This document shows positions 2,275 to 27,256 of a stretch of 37,720 nt of DNA, piece by piece. The notes beneath the pieces were generated by a model. It did not search any database, was not told where the DNA came from, and saw only the letters and a program-made list of their open reading frames with translations. The stretch is from positions 1-37,720 of the forward strand of contig JAZDNQ010000010.1 of NCBI GenBank assembly GCA_043799575.1, in the 5' to 3' direction. Each line of letters begins with the position of its first letter. Within the stretch, counting starts at the first letter, position 1. This DNA is from Patescibacteria group bacterium (GTDB lineage Bacteria; Patescibacteriota; Gracilibacteria; JAHISY01). Both the position numbers and the translations under genes were made by a program.

Positions 2275-2303
2275 GCCGAAAATTGCTTTTTCGGCTTTTT
2301 TTT
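2275..2303 (+). terminator. Intrinsic terminator
   Basis: GCCGAAAA-ttgct-TTTTCGGC followed by T8, just after the stop at 2254. Confidence 0.75.
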
Positions 2304-2334: not shown

Positions 2335-3717
2335 TTGGGGAAAATTAAAACCAAAATCAGCGAATTTTTCGGACGACATCTGCACAGTTTCCAGGAGATG
2401 CTTTTTGCCCTGACCTTGGTTTTTGTGATCGGTGGTTTTGTTTTTGCGAATCTCGGACAAGGCGGGGAGCAGCTGAAAGCTTTTTTGCGTTTCGACAATC
2501 AGCCGAGCGCAGAGCTGCTCGCGGCCGACGCGACTTTGACTTTGCCGACCAGCAACAACGCACCGACAAGCGTAGTTAAATTTTCGCCCGGCGACATTTC
2601 GCAGTGGGGATCGAACGACGCACTGGTCCAAAATCTTTTCAAAAAAACTCTGATTTTCAAACTTTTGACAGTCGCGAAATATATTTTGGGCGGGATTTTC
2701 ATGCTATTTCTCGGACTTTATGTGATTAATTTTTTGATGTCCGGCGACAAACCCGAAGCGCTGAAAAAATTCAGCGATCAAATGCTGTGGTCATTTGTCG
2801 GCTTTTTGATTCTCGCGCTCGCCGAACCGTTTTCGCAGGCATTCAGTTTGCTGCGCACCGGGCAGGTCAATCTTTTGACTAATCCAGCTGCAGCACTCGC
2901 CTCGGCGCAAATCGTCGGCTTCACTTATCGCTCGGCCGCGCATTTGATTGAATACATCGTCGGCGGTGTCGCGCTGCTCACGATGGCCGGTTCGATTTTC
3001 GAAATGGTGACTTCGGTCGGCGACGAGGAAGGCGTGAAAAATGCGCGTAAGTCGATGACCTGGAGCGCGGTTGCCTTGATTGTGGTTGGCGGCGCAGCTC
3101 TTTTCATTGATAATGTTTTTGCGCCAAGCGATGCGATCAGCAAAGAGCTTCAGGGTGGACTTGACCCAGCGATTCAATTAATGGATATTTTGCAGACCGG
3201 GCAATCGCGCGCACGGATTTTGATTTTGGATTATGTTAAATATTTTCAAACTTTTATTGGCGCAGCTTCTGTCCTGATGCTTTTTTTGGCTGGCTTCAAA
3301 ATGGTCTCGGCTGGAGGCGAGGAGGAGGTCATCAAAAAACAAAAGAAAATGATTACCTGGATTTTTATGGGTCTTTCTGTGATTTTAATTTCGGAAGCTT
3401 TTGTGAATATTTTTATGCCGGATGTCGGCGGCCAAATTAAATTCAGCGCAGCGACTGCGATCCGCAGTTTCTCGGCGCAGGTCGGTGGCTTCACAAATTT
3501 CCTTTTAACCTTTTCGGCAGCAATCGCCGTGCTCGCTTTGATCGTCGGCGCACTTTATATTTCGACCGCTTTCACGAATGCTGAACAAGCACAAAAAGGT
3601 AAAAAGATCTTGTTGGCTGCAGGTCTAGGCTTAGTCGTAATTATTTCGGCTTATGCCTTAGTCAATACTGTCCTCTCAAGCGGCGCGAGCGGCGCGAGTA
3701 TTTCTATTTCAAATTAA
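2335..3717 (+). CDS. Membrane protein with four tandem VirB2/TrbC-like (T4SS pilin-like) domains
   Basis: N-terminal TM then four hydrophobic hairpins joined by acidic-basic loops (SGDKPEALKKFSDQMLW, VGDEEGVKNARKSMTW, AGGEEEVIKKQKKMITW, TNAEQAQKGKKILL); start moved to TTG 2335 because 2302 lies inside the promoter (ATG 2398 is an alternative). Confidence 0.75.
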   Translation: MGKIKTKISEFFGRHLHSFQEMLFALTLVFVIGGFVFANLGQGGEQLKAFLRFDNQPSAELLAADATLTLPTSNNAPTSVVKFSPGDISQWGSNDALVQNLFKKTLIFKLLTVAKYILGGIFMLFLGLYVINFLMSGDKPEALKKFSDQMLWSFVGFLILALAEPFSQAFSLLRTGQVNLLTNPAAALASAQIVGFTYRSAAHLIEYIVGGVALLTMAGSIFEMVTSVGDEEGVKNARKSMTWSAVALIVVGGAALFIDNVFAPSDAISKELQGGLDPAIQLMDILQTGQSRARILILDYVKYFQTFIGAASVLMLFLAGFKMVSAGGEEEVIKKQKKMITWIFMGLSVILISEAFVNIFMPDVGGQIKFSAATAIRSFSAQVGGFTNFLLTFSAAIAVLALIVGALYISTAFTNAEQAQKGKKILLAAGLGLVVIISAYALVNTVLSSGASGASISISN

Positions 3718-3718
3718 A

Positions 3719-5191
3719 ATGCCAAAAAAACAAAACAAAACGCTTTTCACAATTCGCAAAATTCGCAATGCTAATCCGCGTTTCCCGCGAATTTATCGTT
3801 CGGTTCGCGAAAGAATTTGGCGCTTTGCGGTCATCCTTTTGCTGATTTCGGCTGGAGTCGCGAGTCTTTTCTTTTTCGAAAATAGTCTCGTTGTGAAAAA
3901 ATTTGAGTCAAATTTAATCGCGGCGGACACGAGCCAGATTCTCGGCAGCGGGTTTCAAACGATCGGCGGATTTACTGGAATTGCCACCAATCCCGGCTCG
4001 GACAAAAAAACTGGTGGCTTCACAGCCAGCGGGATTAAGACAATCAACGCACTGATCTACAACGTCAAAGATTATTTCAAATACATCGCAGGCGGAGTAG
4101 CCGTGCTTTACCTGATTATCGCCGCATTTCAAATCATCATGGCGCGCGACAACGAAGGTATCACCAAAGGCAAAAAGAACTTATTTTGGAGCGTCTTCGC
4201 ACTGGTTTTAGTTTTTGTGGTCGACATCATGGTAATTGCCTTTTACGAAGGCGGCGGAAGCGCGCCCGGCCAAAGTATTTTCGTGGTCAATCCGAACGGG
4301 ACGACTGTCGAAAATCTGACTTTGCTACAGAATATTTCGCTGTATTTCAAAATCAACGCCAAAACAATTTTTAGCTACATCAAAACTTTGGTCGGCGCAT
4401 TTTCAATTTTATTTATCGTTTTCGCTGGCGTACAAATGGTGACGGCAGGCGGGTCGGACGAGAAAATCGAAAAAGAGAAAAAATATTTGATGCACCTCGT
4501 GACTGCTTTTGTCACGATTTTGCTGCTTGATGTAATAATTTTCGGCGTGATTTATCCCGAGGCGATCGATGGCAGCAGCAATCCGGAATGCGCGGAATTT
4601 ATGACTGCGGTCGCAAAAGGCGGTAGTCTCATGGCCGCGCCAGCAGGTTGTCGCTCGGCAGCCGAACTCGGTTTGATCGCCTCAAATCAAATCTTTGGCG
4701 TTGTCCGCTTTTTCGAAACTTTGATCGGCGGCATCGCCATCTTTTTTATGGTTTATTCGGCAGTCGCGATCATCGCGTCGATGGGCGAGGACGACATCGT
4801 GAAGAAGCATCGCACAACTCTGATGTGGAGTCTTGCCGGACTCGTTTTAGTCCTGGTCGCGAATACTCTTATTACGCGATTTTTCTTCATCGTCGACCCG
4901 ACTACCGGAACATCCAGCGTCTCTACAATGACCGGCATTCAGATAATTGCGGGTGTGACAAACTTCATTGCGACTTTTGTCGGTATTTTGTCAGTCATTG
5001 CGATCATCGTAGCTGGCTTCATGTGGGTCGCAAATTTCGGCAGCGACGACGTAGCAGGCAAAGCTAAAAAGGTGATTTTGAGTGCGGTCATCGGCGTGAT
5101 TCTCTCGGTTTCGGCATATGCAATCGTAAACACCATCACAAATGCGAACTCGCATGGTGGAACAGGAACCAATATCGGAGTATCACTTTAA
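3719..5191 (+). CDS. Membrane protein with four tandem VirB2/TrbC-like pilin domains
   Basis: Loops RDNEGITKGKKNLFW, AGGSDEKIEKEKKYL, MGEDDIVKKHRTTLMW, FGSDDVAGKAKKVIL, each between two hydrophobic helices; basic N-terminal leader. Confidence 0.78.
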   Translation: MPKKQNKTLFTIRKIRNANPRFPRIYRSVRERIWRFAVILLLISAGVASLFFFENSLVVKKFESNLIAADTSQILGSGFQTIGGFTGIATNPGSDKKTGGFTASGIKTINALIYNVKDYFKYIAGGVAVLYLIIAAFQIIMARDNEGITKGKKNLFWSVFALVLVFVVDIMVIAFYEGGGSAPGQSIFVVNPNGTTVENLTLLQNISLYFKINAKTIFSYIKTLVGAFSILFIVFAGVQMVTAGGSDEKIEKEKKYLMHLVTAFVTILLLDVIIFGVIYPEAIDGSSNPECAEFMTAVAKGGSLMAAPAGCRSAAELGLIASNQIFGVVRFFETLIGGIAIFFMVYSAVAIIASMGEDDIVKKHRTTLMWSLAGLVLVLVANTLITRFFFIVDPTTGTSSVSTMTGIQIIAGVTNFIATFVGILSVIAIIVAGFMWVANFGSDDVAGKAKKVILSAVIGVILSVSAYAIVNTITNANSHGGTGTNIGVSL

Positions 5192-5212
5192 TATTTCGTC
5201 AAGGTAGCTTGT

Positions 5213-5241
5213 TTGATTGGTAAGCACAGAAATGCTAAAAT
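5213..5241 (+). promoter_or_regulatory. Near-consensus sigma70 promoter
   Basis: TTGATT-17 nt-TAAAAT with extended TG (TGCTAAAAT). Confidence 0.7.
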
Positions 5242-5289
5242 GGCCGGATTTAAAAACAAAAATTTAAATCAAAAATTAACCCCCATAAA

Positions 5290-5424
5290 ATGGCCAAAAC
5301 CAAAACGGTTCGCGCGACTGCAAAACGCGCACACTTCTCGGTTCGCGCGATCCGCAACGCGAATCCGCGCCAATTCCGCGCACACCGCGCGGGCAGCGTG
5401 CTCGCTCGCATCTTCTCGTTTTAA
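5290..5424 (+). CDS. 44-aa basic microprotein (not in ORF track)
   Basis: MAKTKTVRATAKRAHFSVRAIRNANPRQFRAHRAGSVLARIFSF*; A-rich leader before ATG, own promoter, shares a 12-aa motif with the neighbouring genes. Confidence 0.7.
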   Translation: MAKTKTVRATAKRAHFSVRAIRNANPRQFRAHRAGSVLARIFSF

Positions 5425-5457
5425 TTTTTAAAACGGGAGGACGGCTAATCAAGTCGT

Positions 5458-6795
5458 ATGCCTCCAAAAATCAAAAATAAAACTCGACGCTCGCGTCCGG
5501 CGGTGCGGTTCACCGTCCGCCGGATTGCCAATCGAAATCCGCGCAACGCCCGGAATTTTCGGCAGTTTCGCCAAAAATTGACCCGGCTGACGATGGGTTT
5601 GATCGCACTCGGCCTGATCGCGGGCAGTCTTTTTTTGCACGGCGGGCAGCTAAAAAGTGATGTCGTCGCTACGACTCAGCCTGACCAAGCTGAAACAACT
5701 GTGGTCGCTGCAGACACGACAGCTTCGACAGCTACGGCTGTCGCAAACACCAGCGCAACAACCGCACAAAATTCGGCTAGCATGAACGACAAAGTTTGCG
5801 CGGCCGATGATTTGATTAAAAATTTCGAAGATTTGACCACCCAGCTCGCGAATTTGTCGCGCGAGTTTCCAGATGTCATCGCAAATCTAGACTTTTGCGG
5901 GACAGGCAAATGCGCCGCGCAAGATTTGGTTTACAAAAATGAAAACAAAATTTGGCAAATCGAAAAAGATTTGACCAAGCTCGAGACGGACACCACTCGC
6001 GCTCAGACTGATTTCGCGACCAGTTTGGCGGAAAAAGAAAATGGAGTGTTCCTTTGCGAAAACGAGTCGCGCTGCACCGCAGCTGAGGCTGCGCTCGGCA
6101 AAGCTCGTGAATGCGAAAAAACATTTCAAAAGCTGAACCAACTTTTCACTATTCGTACGGACGTACAGGACAAATATTCGCTCGTGACCGCGAAAGGCAC
6201 GCGCGAATCGGCTGCAGTTTATGTGAAAAAATTGATGGAAGATATTTTCAAAAATCGCGATCGCGTCACCGAAAACACGAAATTTTACGAGCAATGCGTT
6301 GCCGCAAGCGATGCGAGCGTTTGCCAGAAATACGTGCAAAAAGTGAAAGAGGCGAACACGAATATCGCAAAATCAATTGAAGAGCTCGGCGGTCTGCAAG
6401 TCGACCTACAGGACAATCTAGACAAGGTCGAGGCTGACATAGTCGCGCTCGAAATCGGTCGTGGCGATGCACAAAATACGAAAGAAAACGAAGGTCTCGG
6501 CTGGTGCGACCAAAATTTGAAAAATACGAAAGCGGATCTTTTTACCAAGCTGACTGCCGCAGCGGGCGCGAAAACGACTTACGACAACGCGCTACAGCAC
6601 TTGGTCGACCTCAAAATTACTCTGAAGGCAAGCCTCCAATCCGAAACGGAAGAGGCGGCAATGCACGCGGCAGCGGAAAAACAAGCTGCCGAGGAAGCGG
6701 AGGCAATCGCGGCAGCGGAGAAAGCAGCCGCGGCAAAACGCGCACAAGCCGAAATGGTTTTCGGATTTTGGACAATAATCCGCAATGGATTTTAA
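5458..6795 (+). CDS. Membrane-anchored or exported helical/coiled-coil protein with paired cysteines, function unknown
   Basis: Basic leader plus TM, Thr/Ala linker, heptad-rich body with CGTGKC, CENESRC, CVAASDASVC, Ala/Glu/Lys helix, aromatic C-terminus. Confidence 0.75.
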   Translation: MPPKIKNKTRRSRPAVRFTVRRIANRNPRNARNFRQFRQKLTRLTMGLIALGLIAGSLFLHGGQLKSDVVATTQPDQAETTVVAADTTASTATAVANTSATTAQNSASMNDKVCAADDLIKNFEDLTTQLANLSREFPDVIANLDFCGTGKCAAQDLVYKNENKIWQIEKDLTKLETDTTRAQTDFATSLAEKENGVFLCENESRCTAAEAALGKARECEKTFQKLNQLFTIRTDVQDKYSLVTAKGTRESAAVYVKKLMEDIFKNRDRVTENTKFYEQCVAASDASVCQKYVQKVKEANTNIAKSIEELGGLQVDLQDNLDKVEADIVALEIGRGDAQNTKENEGLGWCDQNLKNTKADLFTKLTAAAGAKTTYDNALQHLVDLKITLKASLQSETEEAAMHAAAEKQAAEEAEAIAAAEKAAAAKRAQAEMVFGFWTIIRNGF

Positions 6796-6798
6796 AAA

Positions 6799-8775
6799 AT
6801 GAAATTTCTCCAAGAACTTCACGCCAACAAAAAATTGCAATTCGCACTTGTGATCGCGGTCGCAGTTGCGCTGATTTTCGGTGGCTCCCAAGTGCGCGGT
6901 CACGAATTGGGGAGCGACGTCACGCTTTCGACAGGTGCGCTCGTCGCGGTGCAAGCCGAGGCGGACAAAGTCAAAGCCGCGCGTGATGAATATTTCGCCG
7001 CAATCGGGAAAGGCGACGGTGGCATATACGATCAATATATCGAAGCCGCGAACTGCCCAGTGAATTTGAACACGCGACTGACCGCGCTCAAAAATTTGCG
7101 TAACGATTTGCAGCGTCTTTCCGGCGAAATCGTGATGCGCGAACGCGAAAACGGCTCGGAATTGCCGCGCGGGACAATCGAGCGTGAATTGAATGTGATT
7201 GAGTCGACGATCCGTCCGAATTTACTTTTGAATCAACTCGAGACATTCCAAAGTGAGCTCGACAAAATCGAGACCGCGGCCGCGGGCGATCCGAGCAGTT
7301 CGGCGCAGGCAGTCACCGCCAGCGTCGCGACGGTTCGCGACAATTTGGAAAAAATCGGTACGGCTGATTCGCTCGTCGAGCCACTGAAAACAATTGAAAG
7401 TAAATTACCGTATTTGTCGGAAGTAACGAAAGAAATCACTTCGACAAGCTTGAGCAACTTGAATTCAATTATTGCGAATAGCAATGCCAGTGCGGCAATT
7501 CGCCCGACTTTGGCAACGATTCGCCAATTGGCCAATAATAATGATCAGAGTGATTTGATTGAACCCGAGCTGCAAAAAATTGAAAATACCCTGCCTAACT
7601 TTGCGGCTGACCAACAGACTACTATTCAAAGTAGTATCGATACAATCCGCAAATTATTGAGTCGCAAAACTGCGGTCGAGGTACGACAAGCCGAGATTTC
7701 GAGTGTCAAAAATGAAATGCAGCAAATCGCCGACGCGGTTTTCAGTCAAACGGAAATCACTCAGTTTGAAAATCAAGAGGTTGGTTTGCGCAACGAATTT
7801 CAAACAACGACCGCAGCCTTGCAAAATTGTACAGCAAACAATGATGAACTCGAGCGCTGCGCGGTTGAATTGCAGGATTGGGTGCTTGCGAAAGAAAATT
7901 ACGAGCAATTTATCACCAACCTCGAAAACACCGCTTCGGCTCGCACGATTCAGGCGCAAAATAAACTCAAACCTCTGCAGGAAAAATTGAATGACCTGCA
8001 GTCTGAGGAAAATGATCAAAATTTCAGTCCGGAATTGGGCAGTGCGTCATTGCTCGGCATCGAAGCACGATATTTGAAAGCAGATGAGGTTGATTTGAGT
8101 GGTATGGATATGAGCGCTTTTGACAACTGGGATGAGGGTGTACGTACAGCCGGAGGAGGATCGGTCGATGCCAGCTCCGTCAGTAGCGGCGACTCTAGTT
8201 GGTCGTTTTCCGGAGCGATGAGCTCGCTCGCGAGTGGCGCTGCTAGTGTCGGCTCAGCAGTCGGCTCGGTACTTGGCGGAGTCGTCTCTGCTCCGCTCGC
8301 TGCAGTCAGCGGACTGATTGGCGGAGCAAGTAATGTTTTGTCGAGCGGAATCAGTGCAGTCGCGCGCGCGACCGGAATTGCCGGTATCGGCAGTCTGACT
8401 TCATCCGCAGTCGTCTTCGACGGACCTGGTGCACTCACCGGACTACAAACATTCAAACAAAGCTACAAAGGCAATTCTTATGGCAGCGCGATCGGCGTCA
8501 TCACTGGCTGGACGAATTTCGCTTTACCTTTCGTAGGCGTCATCGCGATCGCCGTACTCGTTTACGCTGGCTTCCTGTATCTCACCGCCGCAGGCAGCGA
8601 AGACCAAACCAAAAAAGCCAAAAATATTCTTATCTGGGTTGCGATCGGTATCATTATTATTTTCTCGGCCTACGCGATCGTCAATACTTTGCTCTCAACC
8701 AATAGCAGCAGCGGTGGCAGCGGCACAAGCGTCGGTGTGAATATTGGAGGAATTGGTTTTAATTACAGCAACTAA
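6799..8775 (+). CDS. Large helical protein with Gly/Ser/Ala-rich segment and C-terminal VirB2/TrbC-like pilin domain
   Basis: C-terminal WTNFALPFVGVIAIAVLVYAGFLYLTAAGSEDQTKKAKNILIWVAIG is a typical CPR pilin-like hairpin. Confidence 0.78.
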   Translation: MKFLQELHANKKLQFALVIAVAVALIFGGSQVRGHELGSDVTLSTGALVAVQAEADKVKAARDEYFAAIGKGDGGIYDQYIEAANCPVNLNTRLTALKNLRNDLQRLSGEIVMRERENGSELPRGTIERELNVIESTIRPNLLLNQLETFQSELDKIETAAAGDPSSSAQAVTASVATVRDNLEKIGTADSLVEPLKTIESKLPYLSEVTKEITSTSLSNLNSIIANSNASAAIRPTLATIRQLANNNDQSDLIEPELQKIENTLPNFAADQQTTIQSSIDTIRKLLSRKTAVEVRQAEISSVKNEMQQIADAVFSQTEITQFENQEVGLRNEFQTTTAALQNCTANNDELERCAVELQDWVLAKENYEQFITNLENTASARTIQAQNKLKPLQEKLNDLQSEENDQNFSPELGSASLLGIEARYLKADEVDLSGMDMSAFDNWDEGVRTAGGGSVDASSVSSGDSSWSFSGAMSSLASGAASVGSAVGSVLGGVVSAPLAAVSGLIGGASNVLSSGISAVARATGIAGIGSLTSSAVVFDGPGALTGLQTFKQSYKGNSYGSAIGVITGWTNFALPFVGVIAIAVLVYAGFLYLTAAGSEDQTKKAKNILIWVAIGIIIIFSAYAIVNTLLSTNSSSGGSGTSVGVNIGGIGFNYSN

Positions 8776-9299
8776 TGCTCACAAAAAAACTTCTTCGCGA
8801 CAAGAGAATGGTTCTCGGCATCATGCTCGGAGCGATCATTTTTTCGATCGCACTTTTTGGTCGAATGACTGGCAATTATTTAACCGCGGCAGTCGATTTG
8901 AATTTGGGCGGAGTGCTCGGCGGACTCGGAGTCGATGTCTCGACCGGTGGTTTCAATTTCAGCACAGGCGGCGGATCAGCCGTCCAACCGGGCTGCGGCG
9001 GCGGCAATTGCCTCGTCGTGCCCAACGCCGGAGTTTATTCTGGCATCGTAGGCGCAACCTCGATCCGTGACGCGATTATCAAATGGACGAATTTTTTTCT
9101 CGGATTTCTGACTCTAATCGCGATGATTATTCTGATTTACGCCGGCTTCATGTACATCACCGCAGCTGGAAGCGACGACCAAGCCAAAAAAGCCAAAAAT
9201 ACAATTATCTGGGTCGTGATTGGAATTATTATTATCATGCTCGCTTACGCCTTTGTGAATACTTTTATCACGACTGGCCCGACAGGCCGGGATTACTAA
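8775..9299 (+). CDS. Single-domain VirB2/TrbC-like pilin
   Basis: IYAGFMYITAAGSDDQAKKAKNTIIWVVIG; TAATG stop/start overlap with the upstream gene. Confidence 0.82.
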   Translation: MLTKKLLRDKRMVLGIMLGAIIFSIALFGRMTGNYLTAAVDLNLGGVLGGLGVDVSTGGFNFSTGGGSAVQPGCGGGNCLVVPNAGVYSGIVGATSIRDAIIKWTNFFLGFLTLIAMIILIYAGFMYITAAGSDDQAKKAKNTIIWVVIGIIIIMLAYAFVNTFITTGPTGRDY

Positions 9300-9309
9300 T
9301 CAAACCAAA

Positions 9310-11493
9310 ATGGAAAACCAAGATCTCTCCGATTTCGATGAAATTGCCGCTCCGGCTCATCCAGAGGAAACTCTCGCTGATCGTGTCGCCGCCGAAAAAC
9401 CGCAGCCAATGAATAAAAAACCGATCAACGGGAAAAAAATGGCGTGGGGCTGTCTCTTTCTGTTTTTGGCTGTTTTCTTCATTTTGCTGATCGCGATGGC
9501 GCTCGGATTGAACGCCAATGAAGATACAATATTGAGCCTCGGTCTCAATCCGGTCAGTCTCAAAAACTGGTCGATCGGAATGGTCAATTTCTTTTTCGGC
9601 GCGATCGCTCTGACCAGTTTAATCGTGATGATTTCGAGCCTGACGCGACGTCTGCTCGGCAAAAGAGAAGATGTTTTCGGTATGAACCGCGCGATGAAAA
9701 GAGTTTTTGTCAGTTTTGGAGTTTTCATCACAACAGTTTCAGTGTGGTTCTTGGTTTACGATTATTTCAGCCAGTTCGAAATGAAAGAACCCGAGCTGCC
9801 GATCGAGATCGTGACAAATCCAACGGAAACTTTGAATCTCACGTCTCCAGTACGAGTCGAATTTTCCGCGGAACGTATCACTCAAAAATTTCAGTCGGAT
9901 TACAAAATAATTAGCTATGAATGGGACAAAGAAAATGACGGAAGCATCGACGAAACCGGTCCAAAAACGACGATTTATTTTGTCGATGGCGGCAAAGACA
10001 ACGGTTTTTTTAACGTCAACCTGACAGTAAAAATTCAGCCAAAAACCGGCGGGCCGGTCGAGACGCGGAAATACGAAAAACAAGTTTCGATTTCGAATCA
10101 AAAAATCTACGGCGAAATCACGACTGATAAAGAATCGGGTGAAGCGCCTTTGATGGTGCGTTTCAACGCGAACGGAATCAAAGATCCGAGCGGCGCGAAA
10201 ATTACGAATTTCAGCTGGGATCTCGACGGCGACGGGCGCCCGGATCGCGACGGCGCGAGCTACGGCACGACCGAGTGGACTTTCGAAAAAATCGGCGAAC
10301 ACACTGTGACTTTGGTCGTGACTTCCGCGGATTACAATGACGACGGCACACACGAAACACAATCTTTCGAAAAAACGATCACTGTCCGTGAACCGGCCGG
10401 TGCAGTGAAATCGAATATTTGGATTGAAGCAACTCCGCAGCGCGGTTTTTCACCGCTCGCGGTCACGCTCATCGCGAAAAATGAATCACTCGACAAAGAT
10501 GCTCCACGCATCGACAAATACGAATGGCGCATCGGCGATGGAATGGCGACACTTTTTGGCCAGCGCACCAAATACACTTTCGACAAACCGGGCAATTATC
10601 CGGTTTCGTTGATTGTTACTTTCGCGAATGGACAAATGAGCAGTGCAACAGAAGAGATCGTGGTCAATGACCAAAGTTTTTCACCAACCGCAAAAATCAC
10701 CAGCGATCCGGCGATGAATAGTTCGAAAAAGGCGATCACTGGTCCAGCGCCTTTGACAGTCAAATTCGACGGAACAAAGTCAACCGACCCGGATGATAAT
10801 ATCGTGAAATACGATTGGGATTTCGACGGCGACGGATTTTGGGACGAAGAAGGCAGTACGATTTTGCACGAATTCCGGACAGCTGGTGAATACGAAACAG
10901 TTTTGCGCATCACTGATGCCGACGGCAATGAATCACGCGCGACGATCAAAGTCATCGCGGGAGAGGAAAACGCTATTATCAGCTTCGGCGCAGACAAACT
11001 TTCCGGTGCGGCGCCACTCACAGTCGATTTCGACGCTTCTGGCTCGCGTGTCCCGACTGGCAAAAAAATTATTTCGTACGAGTGGAATTTCGCAGCTGAC
11101 AAAGATCAAAACAAAACTTTCATTTACGATCGCGCGCAAACTTCGCATGTTTTCGAAACCGTCGGCGAGCATCTCGTGAAGCTAACTTTGCACGCGGACG
11201 ACGGCAGCGAATATTACGACACCCTAAAAATCGTGGCTTCGTACGCTTCGCTGCAGGCGAATTTCAATATGTCACGTAGTACTGGTCCGACTCCGCTCGC
11301 GATTTCTTTCGATGCGACTGCTTCAAGCGGCGAATTCACACGCGTCGCGTGGAATTTCGGCGACGGCACGACGAGTACCGAACAAAAACCGAGCCACATC
11401 TTCGAAAAATCCGGCAAGTATGAAGTCGTACTCAAGATTTACGACGCGTTTGGCAATATCTCGCAAACGAGTAAAACTGTAACTGCCAATTAA
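9310..11493 (+). CDS. PKD-domain surface protein (three N-terminal TM helices, six PKD/Ig repeats)
   Basis: Six GxxPLxVxF-like starts and W[DN]xxDG motifs (SWDLDGDG, DWDFDGDG, AWNFGDG). Confidence 0.88.
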   Translation: MENQDLSDFDEIAAPAHPEETLADRVAAEKPQPMNKKPINGKKMAWGCLFLFLAVFFILLIAMALGLNANEDTILSLGLNPVSLKNWSIGMVNFFFGAIALTSLIVMISSLTRRLLGKREDVFGMNRAMKRVFVSFGVFITTVSVWFLVYDYFSQFEMKEPELPIEIVTNPTETLNLTSPVRVEFSAERITQKFQSDYKIISYEWDKENDGSIDETGPKTTIYFVDGGKDNGFFNVNLTVKIQPKTGGPVETRKYEKQVSISNQKIYGEITTDKESGEAPLMVRFNANGIKDPSGAKITNFSWDLDGDGRPDRDGASYGTTEWTFEKIGEHTVTLVVTSADYNDDGTHETQSFEKTITVREPAGAVKSNIWIEATPQRGFSPLAVTLIAKNESLDKDAPRIDKYEWRIGDGMATLFGQRTKYTFDKPGNYPVSLIVTFANGQMSSATEEIVVNDQSFSPTAKITSDPAMNSSKKAITGPAPLTVKFDGTKSTDPDDNIVKYDWDFDGDGFWDEEGSTILHEFRTAGEYETVLRITDADGNESRATIKVIAGEENAIISFGADKLSGAAPLTVDFDASGSRVPTGKKIISYEWNFAADKDQNKTFIYDRAQTSHVFETVGEHLVKLTLHADDGSEYYDTLKIVASYASLQANFNMSRSTGPTPLAISFDATASSGEFTRVAWNFGDGTTSTEQKPSHIFEKSGKYEVVLKIYDAFGNISQTSKTVTAN

Positions 11494-24584: not shown

Positions 24585-24928
24585 GGCTCGAGCAAACAAT
24601 AAGCCGAGTTTTGTCGTGGACAATCATTTTTCTAAGCGGCGGGAAGCACGGAGTTTGTGTCAAACTTTTTCCGAACTTCCAATCCCGCCTTGCAGCCGAG
24701 AGGGTTTACCACGCTCCCATCTCGCGATGGGGCGAAGGACCTGAGGTCCAACTTTTCACCTTTGGTCCGCTTTTGAACCTTTCGGTTCGCGAGCAGATTA
24801 GTATTGTCTCTGTGGTACTTTCCCTATCCTCACGGACGGTCGCCGTTAGCGACTCTCGTCGACACGTGCTGCTCGGACTTTCCTCCCAATGAAAAATTCA
24901 AAGAGCGATTGTCTCGTTTACTCGAGCC
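24585..24928 (-). ncRNA. rnpB: RNase P RNA
   Basis: Minus strand has GAGGAAAGTCCGAGC near the 5' end and ACAAAACTCGGCTTA near the 3' end (P4); terminal P1 helix GGCTCGAGTAAAC/GTTTGCTCGAGCC. Confidence 0.95.
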
Positions 24929-24970: not shown

Positions 24971-27256
24971 CTACCAATTTGGATGTAAGAACCCACCTGC
25001 AGGAGTAATACTTCCGCCACCCAATCCGTTTGGTACAAAAGGATCTTTTGGTTGCTTGCTTGGATCGGGCTGCTTTGATGCTTCGCTCAACTTTTGATAT
25101 AAATTAATCAATTGCGTCTGATCCTGATTGGCAATATTTCCCCCAAACTTTTGTTTCAAATTATTGATTATTTTCAATAACTCTTTTGCGGCTTGAGTTA
25201 ATTGTTGTCGATCAGCCGAAGTACGCTGTGTATCCATTTCATTGATGTAAGGCACTTTTATTTTTTCACCTTTGGTATTGTAGTTTTCGGCAAACTGCTT
25301 GACGGATTCTTTGATGAGGTTGCCCGCGCTCAAAGCATCATTAACTTTTCCGGCTTTAATTTTGGTCTGCTTGAGAAAATCGGTCGTCCAACGACTAGAT
25401 TCAGTCAAAGTATTTGGGCCGGGTTCATTGAGATCCAGACCATACTGCTGTGGAGGAGCGCCTCGAGCAGCTTCTGGCTGTCCGGGTTGTCCGACTGGCA
25501 CGGTTCTGGTGCTGTCTGGTTGTTTTCCTAATCCTGCCGGGAAATCAGGCAGCGTTGTTTTATCTTCAGGTTGATTTTTTCGAGCGTCTTGTAGCTGCTG
25601 CTCTAAATCCTGAACTTTTTTAATAAAGTCAGGCTGAATCGGCTTTTTTTGTTTGAAGTTTTCCCAAAGTTCTCCTAATAGCTTCTGCGCTGCATCATTC
25701 AAAGGTTTATCCTTAGGGTCTAGTGTCTTCTGGGTGATCTTGGCAAGCCGATTATGCATGGGCCAGAAATCTCCGTTTTCTTGAGACTCAGGTTGTTTGA
25801 GTTGATTAGCCCGCTTTTCGAGATCACCAACTCGCTTATCAAATTCATCAAAGTCTTCCATACTCAATGGTTTTTGCCCTGCTTTTTTGGCTATCTCGCC
25901 CATCAAATTGGTAATGTCATCTTCTAATTTTTGATCCTTGCCAAAAGATTCATGTAGAGCCGCATTAAGGCGATCTCTCAAATTACCATGCAGTTTATCT
26001 AAAGCAACAGTGTCTTTTTCCTTTTGAAAATTCAATTTCGGCGGTATCGCACCAGGTCCTTGATTAGGGCCGCGATAACCCTCCCTTGGTCCAGCTTTCG
26101 GTTGTTCAGCTGTGCCTGCTCCACCTTGCATCGGCTGATCAGGATAGAGATTCTCCTGTTTGGGTTGACCAGCACCACCTTGCATCGGCTGATCAGGATA
26201 GAGATTTTCAACTTTTAGCGGATTTACCGATGCCTGAGGTTTAACAGCTTGACCATCCAGCGGTTTGTAATTTTGAGGGAATAATTGCTCCTGCGGTTTT
26301 TGCGGTTGCTCGGCTTTTTGAAATTTTGGTTCGCCCGGCTCGAGAATCATAAAATTACTGCGGCAACCATTTTCCATGCGCGCGACCGCCCGACCGTCTG
26401 GTAAAAGCGCGACATCTTTTATTTCAAAAGTCAGCATATTTTTCGGGTCGAGATTGACCATCTGCCCGCCGATCAAAACTTTCGCATTTTTGACAATAAA
26501 TTCTTTACCACCAATCTTGAGCGGTTGAGAAAAAGGCATTGTTTCACCTTTCGTCATCAAATCTTCAATTTTTTGACGATCGGCCGGAGTACCGAGCGGC
26601 AAATCTTTTTCCGCCGCACGCATCGATTTCCATAAAGAGCTTTTTATCGAATCGTGCGGGCAGGGCTGTTCGGCCATTGTATTGACCAAAATATCTGATT
26701 TTTGTTCACGCGCAAGGTTTGGCGAATCAGCCAGCATTCTATTCAGCTCTTCACAAAACTGGCCGCGATAAATTTTGGCAGCCTCGCCGTGCAGACCGTT
26801 TTTTTCGCCGACCGTCGCATCAATAATTTGGCGCGCTTCTTCTGGGGTCAATTCGGTCTTGCCAGCCAAAATACCTTTAGCTTTCTCGAGATTGGCCTGC
26901 AATTTTTGCTGAATTTCTGGTAATTGCTCTTGCAATTTTGGATCGAGCCGACCGCGCTCGCGCAAAGATTGAACTCGCGCATTATCAGTCAAACTATCGA
27001 GTTTACCTTTGTTTCCACCCTGCTCAACCCTATTTGCTTGTTCCAAATTTTGTAAACCGCGACCCGCTTCTTGATCAGCATTTTGAGCCAGCGTAAAAAA
27101 TCTATCTTTATCTTCCGGTTTTGTAACTTGGGGCAATAATTTATCCAATTCGCGTTGGAGCTCAGCCACTTTCATAAAATTCGGCTTTTTATCTTTATCA
27201 GCCTGTTCAGCCTTTCGCTCGGTCGCTCGCTGTGCTTCTAGATTTGGATTGGACAT
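24971..27256 (-). CDS. 761-aa hydrophilic Gln/Pro/Lys-rich protein with internal repeats, function unknown
   Basis: Long uninterrupted ORF, no signal peptide or TM, A-rich leader. Confidence 0.8.
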   Translation of the reverse strand: MSNPNLEAQRATERKAEQADKDKKPNFMKVAELQRELDKLLPQVTKPEDKDRFFTLAQNADQEAGRGLQNLEQANRVEQGGNKGKLDSLTDNARVQSLRERGRLDPKLQEQLPEIQQKLQANLEKAKGILAGKTELTPEEARQIIDATVGEKNGLHGEAAKIYRGQFCEELNRMLADSPNLAREQKSDILVNTMAEQPCPHDSIKSSLWKSMRAAEKDLPLGTPADRQKIEDLMTKGETMPFSQPLKIGGKEFIVKNAKVLIGGQMVNLDPKNMLTFEIKDVALLPDGRAVARMENGCRSNFMILEPGEPKFQKAEQPQKPQEQLFPQNYKPLDGQAVKPQASVNPLKVENLYPDQPMQGGAGQPKQENLYPDQPMQGGAGTAEQPKAGPREGYRGPNQGPGAIPPKLNFQKEKDTVALDKLHGNLRDRLNAALHESFGKDQKLEDDITNLMGEIAKKAGQKPLSMEDFDEFDKRVGDLEKRANQLKQPESQENGDFWPMHNRLAKITQKTLDPKDKPLNDAAQKLLGELWENFKQKKPIQPDFIKKVQDLEQQLQDARKNQPEDKTTLPDFPAGLGKQPDSTRTVPVGQPGQPEAARGAPPQQYGLDLNEPGPNTLTESSRWTTDFLKQTKIKAGKVNDALSAGNLIKESVKQFAENYNTKGEKIKVPYINEMDTQRTSADRQQLTQAAKELLKIINNLKQKFGGNIANQDQTQLINLYQKLSEASKQPDPSKQPKDPFVPNGLGGGSITPAGGFLHPNW
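26121..26206. repeat. 32-nt perfect direct repeat with 54-nt period (ENLYPDQPMQGGAG x2)
   Basis: ccaccttgcatcggctgatcaggatagagatt at 26121 and 26175. Confidence 0.9.

Follow-up and report, generated by a model that had tools for sequence, protein, structure and literature searches.

The closest described relatives of the locus reported here are the pilin gene arrays of a type IV secretion system (T4SS)-like apparatus of Patescibacteria, an apparatus related to the conjugation systems of monoderm bacteria. In S. epibionticum, the pilins of the T4SS cluster are reported to be essential (Wang et al. 2023, PMC10633639), and a survey of Patescibacteria pilins counted 441 arrays of 2–11 genes, with pilin genes near virB4 in 1135 of 1948 assemblies (Quinonero-Coronel et al. 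2025, PMC12102498). For Gracilibacteria, the same survey reports that T4SS parts are not clustered with virB4 and that VirB6 homologs were not detected. Recent reviews treat as open the question of how a conjugation-type machine in a monoderm builds its pilus (PMC12857230). Here, we describe a locus of seven genes, G1 to G7, in a 37,720-nt stretch of DNA (the window; contig JAZDNQ010000010.1 of assembly GCA_043799575.1) from a bacterium of the class Gracilibacteria. The locus encodes ten VirB2-type pilin hairpins, most of which are fused into two polypeptides that we call poly-pilins.

Like the described arrays (e.g., SEML1_0006-0019 of S. epibionticum ML1; PMC10633639; PMC12102498), the locus holds side-by-side divergent paralogs of the family PF18895, is chromosomal, and belongs to a monoderm host from the candidate phyla radiation (CPR) with a VirB4 of the Firmicutes/Tenericutes type (conju_CD1110 family). 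The survey counts as an array two or more pilin genes that are in tandem or have one non-pilin gene between them, in a genome with VirB4 (PMC12102498); the locus has two adjacent pairs of this kind, G1-G2 and G5-G6, with G3 and G4 between the pairs, and its genome has a VirB4-like gene. Unlike in these arrays, eight of the ten hairpins sit in two polypeptides and the others are joined to large ectodomains, and the locus keeps conserved partners, i.e., a PKD protein, a Cys-rich protein and a microprotein. Unlike many of the arrays in the survey, it is not beside virB4 (PMC12102498). The main text of the survey makes no mention of fused pilins, and its supplements (Table S3, Fig. S9), which lay outside the search, may list multi-hit proteins. 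More broadly, pilin hairpins fused in one polypeptide were not described in the main texts of the literature searched (PMC10633639, PMC12857230, PMC9905601, PMC8080830, PMC11452946, PMC6744442, PMC4736985, 10.1101/2025.04.23.650224; supplements were outside the search). The pilin gene arrays of Patescibacteria as such are already known.

Other known systems share single features with the locus. The canonical VirB2/TrbC/TraA pilins (PF04956) are likewise hairpins of two helices whose loop is basic and whose ends both face outward, they too have an N-terminal leader, and G6 scores just above the cut-off of their family (28.1 bits; cut-off 27.9), with G5 below it at 20.7 bits and no match to G1 or G2 at E ≤ 0.1. 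The canonical pilins differ in that they are single-domain proteins of ~70–120 amino acids (aa) in the T4SS operons of diderms. The Mbov_0395 family of pilin-like conjugal transfer proteins (NF045849, integrative and conjugative elements of Mycoplasma) is of monoderm type, and three locus proteins exceed its cut-off of 40 bits (G1 55.5, G2 49.2, G6 45.5); its model describes a single domain of ~80 residues from a mobile element, whereas the locus genes are multi-domain, chromosomal and core. The Pam system of CPR follows a different principle, with Ig-like pilins joined by donor-strand exchange (PMC13278184).

The source genome is a metagenome-assembled genome (MAG) of 930,587 bp in 72 contigs, 92% complete and 4.65% contaminated, whose closest named relative is a Candidatus Peribacteraceae MAG (NCBI lineage Candidatus Peregrinibacteriota), in keeping with the Gracilibacteria-class or CPR origin guessed in the first-pass annotation described below; the window is contig C14. 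The seven genes lie head to tail on the + strand from 2302 or 2335, depending on the start assigned to G1, to 11493. A first-pass annotation, made from the sequence without database searches, had described them as co-oriented and tightly packed; all the genes it described exist, with gaps of −1 to 26 nt. It had also predicted T4SS pilin profile matches in the pattern 4+4+1+1, and exactly this pattern was obtained with PF18895 in G1, G2, G5 and G6. G1 (2335..3717), poly-pilin A, has an N-terminal anchor or signal helix followed by four VirB2-like hairpins at about nt 2629-2847, 2914-3117, 3211-3423 and 3469-3681 (PF18895 ×4, 78.8 bits, E = 3.2e-22). The TTG start at 2335 chosen in the first pass is better than 2302, because the orthologs align from residue 12 of the 2302 open reading frame (ORF). 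G2 (3719..5191), poly-pilin B, has a basic cytoplasmic leader with the motif R-x-I-x-N-x-N-P-R, an anchor helix and again four hairpins, at about nt 4031-4246, 4340-4549, 4670-4882 and 4922-5140 (PF18895 ×4, 86.5 bits, E = 1.3e-24). A hydropathy scan gave nine hydrophobic segments in each of the two proteins, one N-terminal and eight following. Single-hairpin scores in the genome scan were above the PF18895 gathering score of 26.6 bits for seven of the ten hairpins in the window, and the other three reached 20.8–24.7 bits.

G2 has 30 other database homologs of 277–702 aa. Its ESM Atlas model is of low confidence (pTM 0.34), with no usable structural neighbour, and its nearest Atlas clusters by features are T4SS_pilin proteins of 311–362 aa from Peregrinibacteriota and Altimarinota. 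Searches of PDB sequences with the G6 and G2 family profiles returned nothing below E 0.5. After the last hairpin, G1, G2 and G5 each carry a short Gly/Ser/Thr-rich tail (3705-3717, 5170-5191 and 8700-8775) with an alternating G-x-S/N-I/V-x-I/V pattern; the end of G6 differs.

The ten hairpins align over 75 columns without internal gaps, and an acidic-then-basic pattern is present in the loop of all ten copies. Both ends of VirB2/TraA pilins are known to point outward, and the locus hairpins are predicted to have the same topology, with two hydrophobic helices joined by a short charged loop. If the basic N-terminus lies inside, the hairpin loops lie inside and the linkers and tails outside; under this assumption the segments predicted to be cytoplasmic have 22 Lys or Arg among 106 residues in G1 and 26 among 106 in G2, compared with 15 among 194 and 13 among 213 outside. 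Every Cys of G2, G5 and G6 falls in an outside segment. These include an invariant pair in the G2 linker between hairpins 2 and 3 (C291/C311, 20 sequences) and another just before helix 1 of G6 (C74/C79, seven orthologs aligned at 47–73% identity). Since both ends are outward, hairpins can be chained through outside linkers and outward domains can be attached at either end. Both placements occur in the locus, where the ectodomain of G5 precedes its hairpin and the PKD repeats of G7 follow a hairpin-like helix pair.

To trace the history of the hairpins, a tree was built of 99 of them, drawn from five other families and from seven genomes of the family itself; a weak hit judged spurious and a hairpin of fewer than 55 residues were dropped. 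Each of the ten positions (G1d1-4, G2d1-4, G5 and G6) forms a separate clade with support of 96–100, and there is no sign of concerted evolution among the hairpins of this tree. One clade per position indicates that the parts form a constant set, as opposed to a library of variants. The last hairpins of all poly-pilins cluster with the free pilins (one clade, 38 rows, support 100/94), and two “B” proteins of other families contribute first hairpins that join G2d1 (support 97/84). These groupings imply that the fusions and the A/B duplication are older than the family and probably older than much of the class. An earlier BLAST-based inference, that the extra hairpin of the four-hairpin proteins is the first one, was contradicted by the tree, in which first hairpins group with first and last with last. 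The last hairpins are set apart by sequence as well: of the genome's 18 pilin domains, only four, G1d4, G2d4, G5 and G6, end helix 2 with the motif A-Y-A-[LIF]-V-N-T. The share of the commonest residue is 0.71–0.85 in the eight G1/G2 hairpins versus 0.51–0.67 in the linkers, and the hairpins are gap-free or nearly so, insertions being taken up by the linkers.

The free pilins and their partners follow downstream. G6 (8775..9299) is a single-hairpin pilin (hairpin nt 9051-9275; PF18895 42.3 bits) with three transmembrane (TM) segments by hydropathy. G5 (6799..8775) has a signal anchor, an ectodomain of ~530 aa and a C-terminal hairpin (nt 8476-8700; PF18895 at residues 567-631, 37.8 bits); three of its four TM segments in the hydropathy scan are the signal anchor and the hairpin. 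The ectodomain is helical, Gly/Ser-rich and fast-evolving, matches no Pfam family outside the hairpin, and ranges from absent (a 187-aa ortholog) to ~530 aa, whereas the pilin tail keeps 57–71% identity across genera. G4 (5458..6795) has no pilin hairpin; it begins with the leader motif, continues with one TM helix by hydropathy and ends in an outward, helical, Cys-rich ectodomain. It matches no Pfam or NCBIfam family; across eight orthologs, seven Cys and the stretch RRIANxNP are invariant. Its ESM Atlas model is of low confidence (pLDDT 0.44) and finds generic helical look-alikes only. A comparison of G4 with G5 gave no significant similarity (best E 0.19).

G7 (9310..11493) consists of three TM helices followed by five or six outward PKD domains. 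The first-pass annotation described it as a protein with three TM helices and six PKD domains; the three helices stand, and of the PKD domains five stretches pass on their own with room in the length for a sixth (PKD_4 190.1 bits, E = 6.1e-57, and PKD 141.7 bits, five stretches each; PF18911/PF00801). The comparison of the G7 N-terminus with G6 (hhalign probability 79%, E = 1.6e-5, 46 columns) suggests that the last two TM helices may be a degenerate pilin hairpin, and the pilin profile hidden Markov model (HMM) gives weak matches on ten N-termini (domain i-E 3e-4 to 0.3). An assignment of G7 to PamR (NCBIfam NF058578) was rejected, for the score is 20.2 bits against a cut-off of 300 over a short Ig-like stretch and reflects mere Ig-like resemblance. 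Orthologs of G7 were found in 96 of 151 sampled genomes of the class (E ≤ 1e-40), as single matches in ORFs of ~700–870 aa. One of them (G052:C30:13814-15856) is read through 45 in-frame TGA codons, which indicates that the class includes TGA-recoded lineages; the window genes are open under table 11, with long frames all along.

Seven loci from three genera show strong conservation of the 266-nt spacer between G2 and G4. The spacer contains a promoter-like element (5213..5241, +; TTGATT, 17 nt, TG-extended TAAAAT), picked up in a promoter scan, both hexamers of which are nearly invariant in the alignment of these loci. Further downstream lies G3 (5290..5424, +), a basic microprotein of 44 aa with no membrane helix. 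A microprotein had been called here in the first pass, and the gene is real, but the frame was wrong: a 72-aa ORF at 5213-5431 was rejected as another frame over the same DNA, and conservation among orthologs supports the 44-aa frame. As read off the alignment, the differences of the spacer from one related locus (L036) fall on third codon positions of this frame. An intact G3 ORF of 43–60 aa with the same motif is present in all nine loci, and G3 has been called as a gene of 43–60 aa in 12 database clusters, one of which may be the window's own protein. G3 repeats the cytoplasmic leader of G2 and G4. The whole genome, translated in six frames, has three copies of the leader motif, R-x-[IVL]-x-N-x-N-P-[RK], one each in G2, G3 and G4; by a rough estimate about 0.1 chance occurrences are expected for a pattern of such specificity. 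It was not found in five loci of other families, where the poly-pilins begin with ordinary signal peptides.

The locus is old and its order is stable. All 12 genomes of the order (one family, four genera) have G2, and the first-pass suggestion to check gene order in relatives was borne out, the order being kept in eight of eight related loci. G1, G2 and G5 occur in all eight of these (one G5 is cut by a contig end and one is split in two ORFs), G4 in seven (it is absent in L041), G6 in seven (the eighth locus ends before G6) and G7 in six (two loci end before it). Amino acid identity is 47–70% for G1, 45–67% for G2, 54–72% for G6, 46–72% for G7 and 23–58% for G4. The flanks of the related loci (galU, a sigma-like gene and a 2-hydroxyacid dehydrogenase gene) are syntenic as well, and synteny at the depth of the order is thus partly general genome conservation.

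At the depth of the class, G2 matches are found in 233 of 301 sampled genomes (E ≤ 1e-8), and among the matches listed at least 34 genomes outside the order have two of them within 2 kb on one contig. In five genomes, one from each of five other families, an adjacent, co-oriented pair of three-hairpin ORFs is present in every case; nine of the ten ORFs measure 301–346 aa, and the tenth was called at 234 aa, from a start that truncates its first hairpin. In three of the five families the pair is followed by a giant of 1587–2079 aa with an N-terminal PF18895 hairpin and many PKD stretches, and then by a six-PKD protein of 742–835 aa that aligns to G7 over 674–694 residues at ~31% identity. The best G6 match in two of the other-family loci is the N-terminus of the pilin+PKD giant. 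Pilins that bear cargo, as anticipated in the first pass, are therefore real and recur in the class in the form of these giants. By comparison of coordinates, at least 17 further genomes have a G7 ortholog no more than ~12 kb away from the pair.

Fused pilins are also numerous in public data. With a profile built from the ten locus hairpins, 53,314 representative proteins were matched at E ≤ 0.001, 5,201 at E ≤ 1e-10 and 192 at E ≤ 1e-30. The best 150 of these 192 all hold 3–17 hairpins: three in 100 proteins, four in 30, five in 3, six in 8, seven in 3, eight in 1, ten in 2, eleven in 2 and seventeen in 1. The longest chain has 17 hairpins in 1775 aa. Five proteins (P0074, P0134, P0151, P0177 and P0067; 966–1775 aa, 20–34 TM helices) consist almost only of back-to-back hairpins, 10, 11 and 17 of them. 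By source label, cluster members include Candidatus Andersenbacteria (representative with 6 hairpins) and, in two clusters, a Candidatus Altiarchaeales archaeon (representatives with 10–11).

Other components of a T4SS-like apparatus are encoded elsewhere in the genome. As the first-pass annotation had stated for the window, it holds no VirB4, VirD4 or type IV pilus-type (T2SSE) ATPase, and the matches to these families sit on other contigs. A VirB4-like ATPase of 766 aa stands alone among housekeeping genes on contig C25 (P-loop_TraG 88.8 bits; NCBIfam conju_CD1110 369.5 bits, cut-off 325); it was found through AAA_10, P-loop_TraG and NCBIfam, and the genome has no match to PF03135 (CagE_TrbE_VirB). 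The genome further encodes a PrgI/VirB3-like protein (48 bits), two ATPases resembling T4SS coupling proteins (947 and 871 aa) and four T2SSE-type ATPases of type IV pili or type II secretion systems, all on contigs other than that of the window. The PrgI-like gene is part of a second T4SS fragment coupled to a PKD protein: on contig C62 (L049:5962-9551) it directly follows a gene for an 805-aa surface protein with PKD and SLH domains, and after it comes a gene of 234 aa in which one region resembles TraC_F_IV (27.6 bits, against a cut-off of 28.1). Across the class, VirB4 was found in 290 of 301 genomes, mostly as a single match each, with 54–86% identity among the matches listed.

Taken together, we would give an even chance to the reading that this is a chromosomal pilin and adhesin module belonging to the T4SS-like apparatus of Patescibacteria, here in the dispersed arrangement that typifies the Gracilibacteria/Peregrinibacteria lineage. 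What the data show is the identity of the domain, the topology signals, positional orthology, the conserved neighbourhood and the presence of VirB4, PrgI and coupling-protein homologs. Its products would then co-assemble, a filament would be extruded in dependence on VirB4, and contact with the host would be its role. In such a mechanism the building block would be the VirB2-type hairpin, whose helix 1 runs from outside to inside and whose helix 2 returns after a short basic cytoplasmic loop. G1 and G2 are ancient paralogs, each with its own fixed series of four non-equivalent hairpins, and could act as pre-linked adaptor or nucleus subunits, a proposal that follows from the helix-2 signature shared by their last hairpins with G5 and G6. 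Pre-linked subunits had already been suggested in the first pass, and the clustering of the last hairpins with the free pilins fits that suggestion. The plain pilin G6 and G5, the pilin with the variable coiled ectodomain, would stack onto G1/G2, G7 with its PKD array and G4 with its Cys-rich ectodomain would present the surface-contact domains, and the distant VirB4-like ATPase would drive assembly. A more speculative extension, which we regard as unlikely, is that the poly-pilins are covalently pre-assembled pieces of a lipid-protein pilus whose hairpins take fixed places in a VirB4-driven nucleus or platform, that they represent intermediates on the way from VirB2 to a VirB6/CedA-type pore, and that the microprotein competes for, or chaperones, recognition of the leader.

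Several observations weigh against the module reading. PF18895 has 18 matches in the 930-kb genome, ten in the locus and eight elsewhere; any of these eight could be the main filament subunit, a role given to G6 in the first pass. Extracting a chain of eight TM helices from the membrane may be difficult (other public proteins have up to 34), which would favour a membrane-resident role. The locus and VirB4 are on different contigs and are at least 200 kb apart in five closed or near-closed relatives, so that the link between them is one of family membership only. One family (f12) has VirB4 in 40 of 40 genomes and G2 matches in 0 of 40; with VirB4 nearly universal in the class, even where G2 is missing, the co-occurrence of VirB4 and poly-pilins gives no support. 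Moreover, the G7 ortholog is far from the pair or on another contig in some genomes, e.g., G027, G082, G042, G100 and several of family f11. As a separate observation on the genome count, two near-duplicate stretches (C23:1914-2354 and C54:2201-2635) each contain a single pilin gene with the same neighbours; the duplication is probably strain redundancy in the MAG, and the 18 domains thus include one duplicate.

Of the alternatives, the one that fares best, although it is unlikely, is that the hairpin is only a generic two-helix anchor and that the locus encodes an envelope or surface-protein complex of adhesins and scaffolds, inserted by Sec/YidC and independent of the T4SS ATPase. The location of the locus amid housekeeping genes and far from VirB4 would agree with this, as would the pair found beside secE-nusG-rplK in one other family, and passengers as different as PKD arrays, coiled ectodomains and the giants of 1587–2079 aa. 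The domain is also extremely common, as the number of representative proteins at E ≤ 0.001 illustrates, and G2 has no match in plasmid or phage collections (tblastn). However, the gap-free conservation of the hairpins is far above the need of a greasy anchor, the charge pattern of the loop is kept in all ten copies, G6 scores above the TrbC/VirB2 cut-off, and the same domain family is reported inside the essential T4SS cluster of S. epibionticum (PMC10633639).

It is rather improbable, too, that G1 and G2 form a membrane-resident pore or assembly platform of the VirB6/CedA kind, built of pilin-like hairpins, on which the free pilins polymerise. Like VirB6/TrbL/CedA, they would be polytopic inner-membrane proteins of a T4SS (eight TM helices plus an anchor), and they are an ancient, conserved pair with fixed, non-equivalent hairpins. 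The N-terminal part of VirB6/CedA is reported to resemble a pilin (Beltran et al., PMC9905601). A platform made in this way would explain why VirB6 is undetectable in the lineage: no TrbL/VirB6 (PF04610) match was found in the genome itself or in the 11 other genomes of the family (0/11), a VirB6-like protein of the sister family used as a query found nothing in the genome itself, and VirB6 homologs are reported absent in Gracilibacteria (PMC12102498). On the other hand, G1 and G2 are regular strings of hairpins without the large hydrophilic domains of extended VirB6, and neither has a PF04610 match at E ≤ 0.1 in the Pfam scan. At 92% completeness, a divergent VirB6 may also have been missed in this genome. 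The sister family (f11) has TrbL/VirB6-like genes in 13 of 14 genomes together with poly-pilin-type G2 matches in 31 of 31, which indicates that poly-pilins are not simply a replacement of VirB6, and the f11 VirB6-like proteins show no similarity to the pilin HMM or to the locus proteins. In one f11 genome (L051:6580-10860, G071), two pilin genes with one hairpin each (117 and 228 aa) come after a TrbL/VirB6-like gene of 828 aa (39.5 bits), which adjoins a YidC-like gene of opposite orientation.

It is very improbable that G1 and G2 are polyprotein precursors, each cleaved into four single pilins by signal peptidase or by a protease dedicated to the task. In favour of this, the ends of canonical VirB2/TrbC pilins undergo proteolytic processing, and the linkers are all predicted to be on the outer side, the site of signal peptidase action. 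Against it, the linkers have position-specific conserved residues, an invariant Cys pair among them, and no repeated cleavage-site motif that could be seen; each position has been distinct since before the divergence of the family; the end motif of helix 2 that the free pilins share is missing from the internal hairpins; and separate single-pilin genes stand alongside.

If the module reading is correct, the locus bears on a machine that is reported to be among the few surface machines essential for the epibiotic life of a cultivated patescibacterium (PMC10633639). The pilin hairpin appears as a modular brick across the whole class, used in fixed chains of three or four and as an anchor for PKD and other adhesin-like domains, and the fused forms in public data, including clusters labelled Altiarchaeales, indicate that the principle is not limited to one clade. 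A parts list that is stable over deep time argues, at least in this lineage, against paralog arrays serving mainly for antigenic or host-range variation, an idea put forward in the survey of Patescibacteria pilins (PMC12102498). The locus also offers candidates for the pilus nucleus or platform (G1, G2), for the contact surface (G4, G5, G7) and for a possible assembly signal (the leader motif and the microprotein).

The surroundings of the locus were inspected as well. An intrinsic-terminator-like hairpin (2275..2303, +), read directly from the sequence and not listed by a consensus terminator scan, has a stem of 8–9 bp, a 4-nt loop and a run of 8 T; it lies between G1 and the sigma-like gene upstream and marks the unit's 5′ border. 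This upstream gene (1151-2254, +) encodes a 367-aa protein with an N-terminal sigma-70 region 4 and a HARE-HTH (RNA polymerase delta-like) domain. It is always directly 5′ of G1, at 69–89% identity, in the seven related loci that reach that far, and it is not beside the pilin pair in the five other families examined. An Rfam scan gave no match inside the locus. Elsewhere in the window, there are four tRNA genes and a bacterial RNase P RNA gene (24585-24924, −; 182 bits), which lies directly downstream of an ORF (24971-27256, −) for a 761-aa Gln/Pro/Lys-rich protein with an internal repeat.

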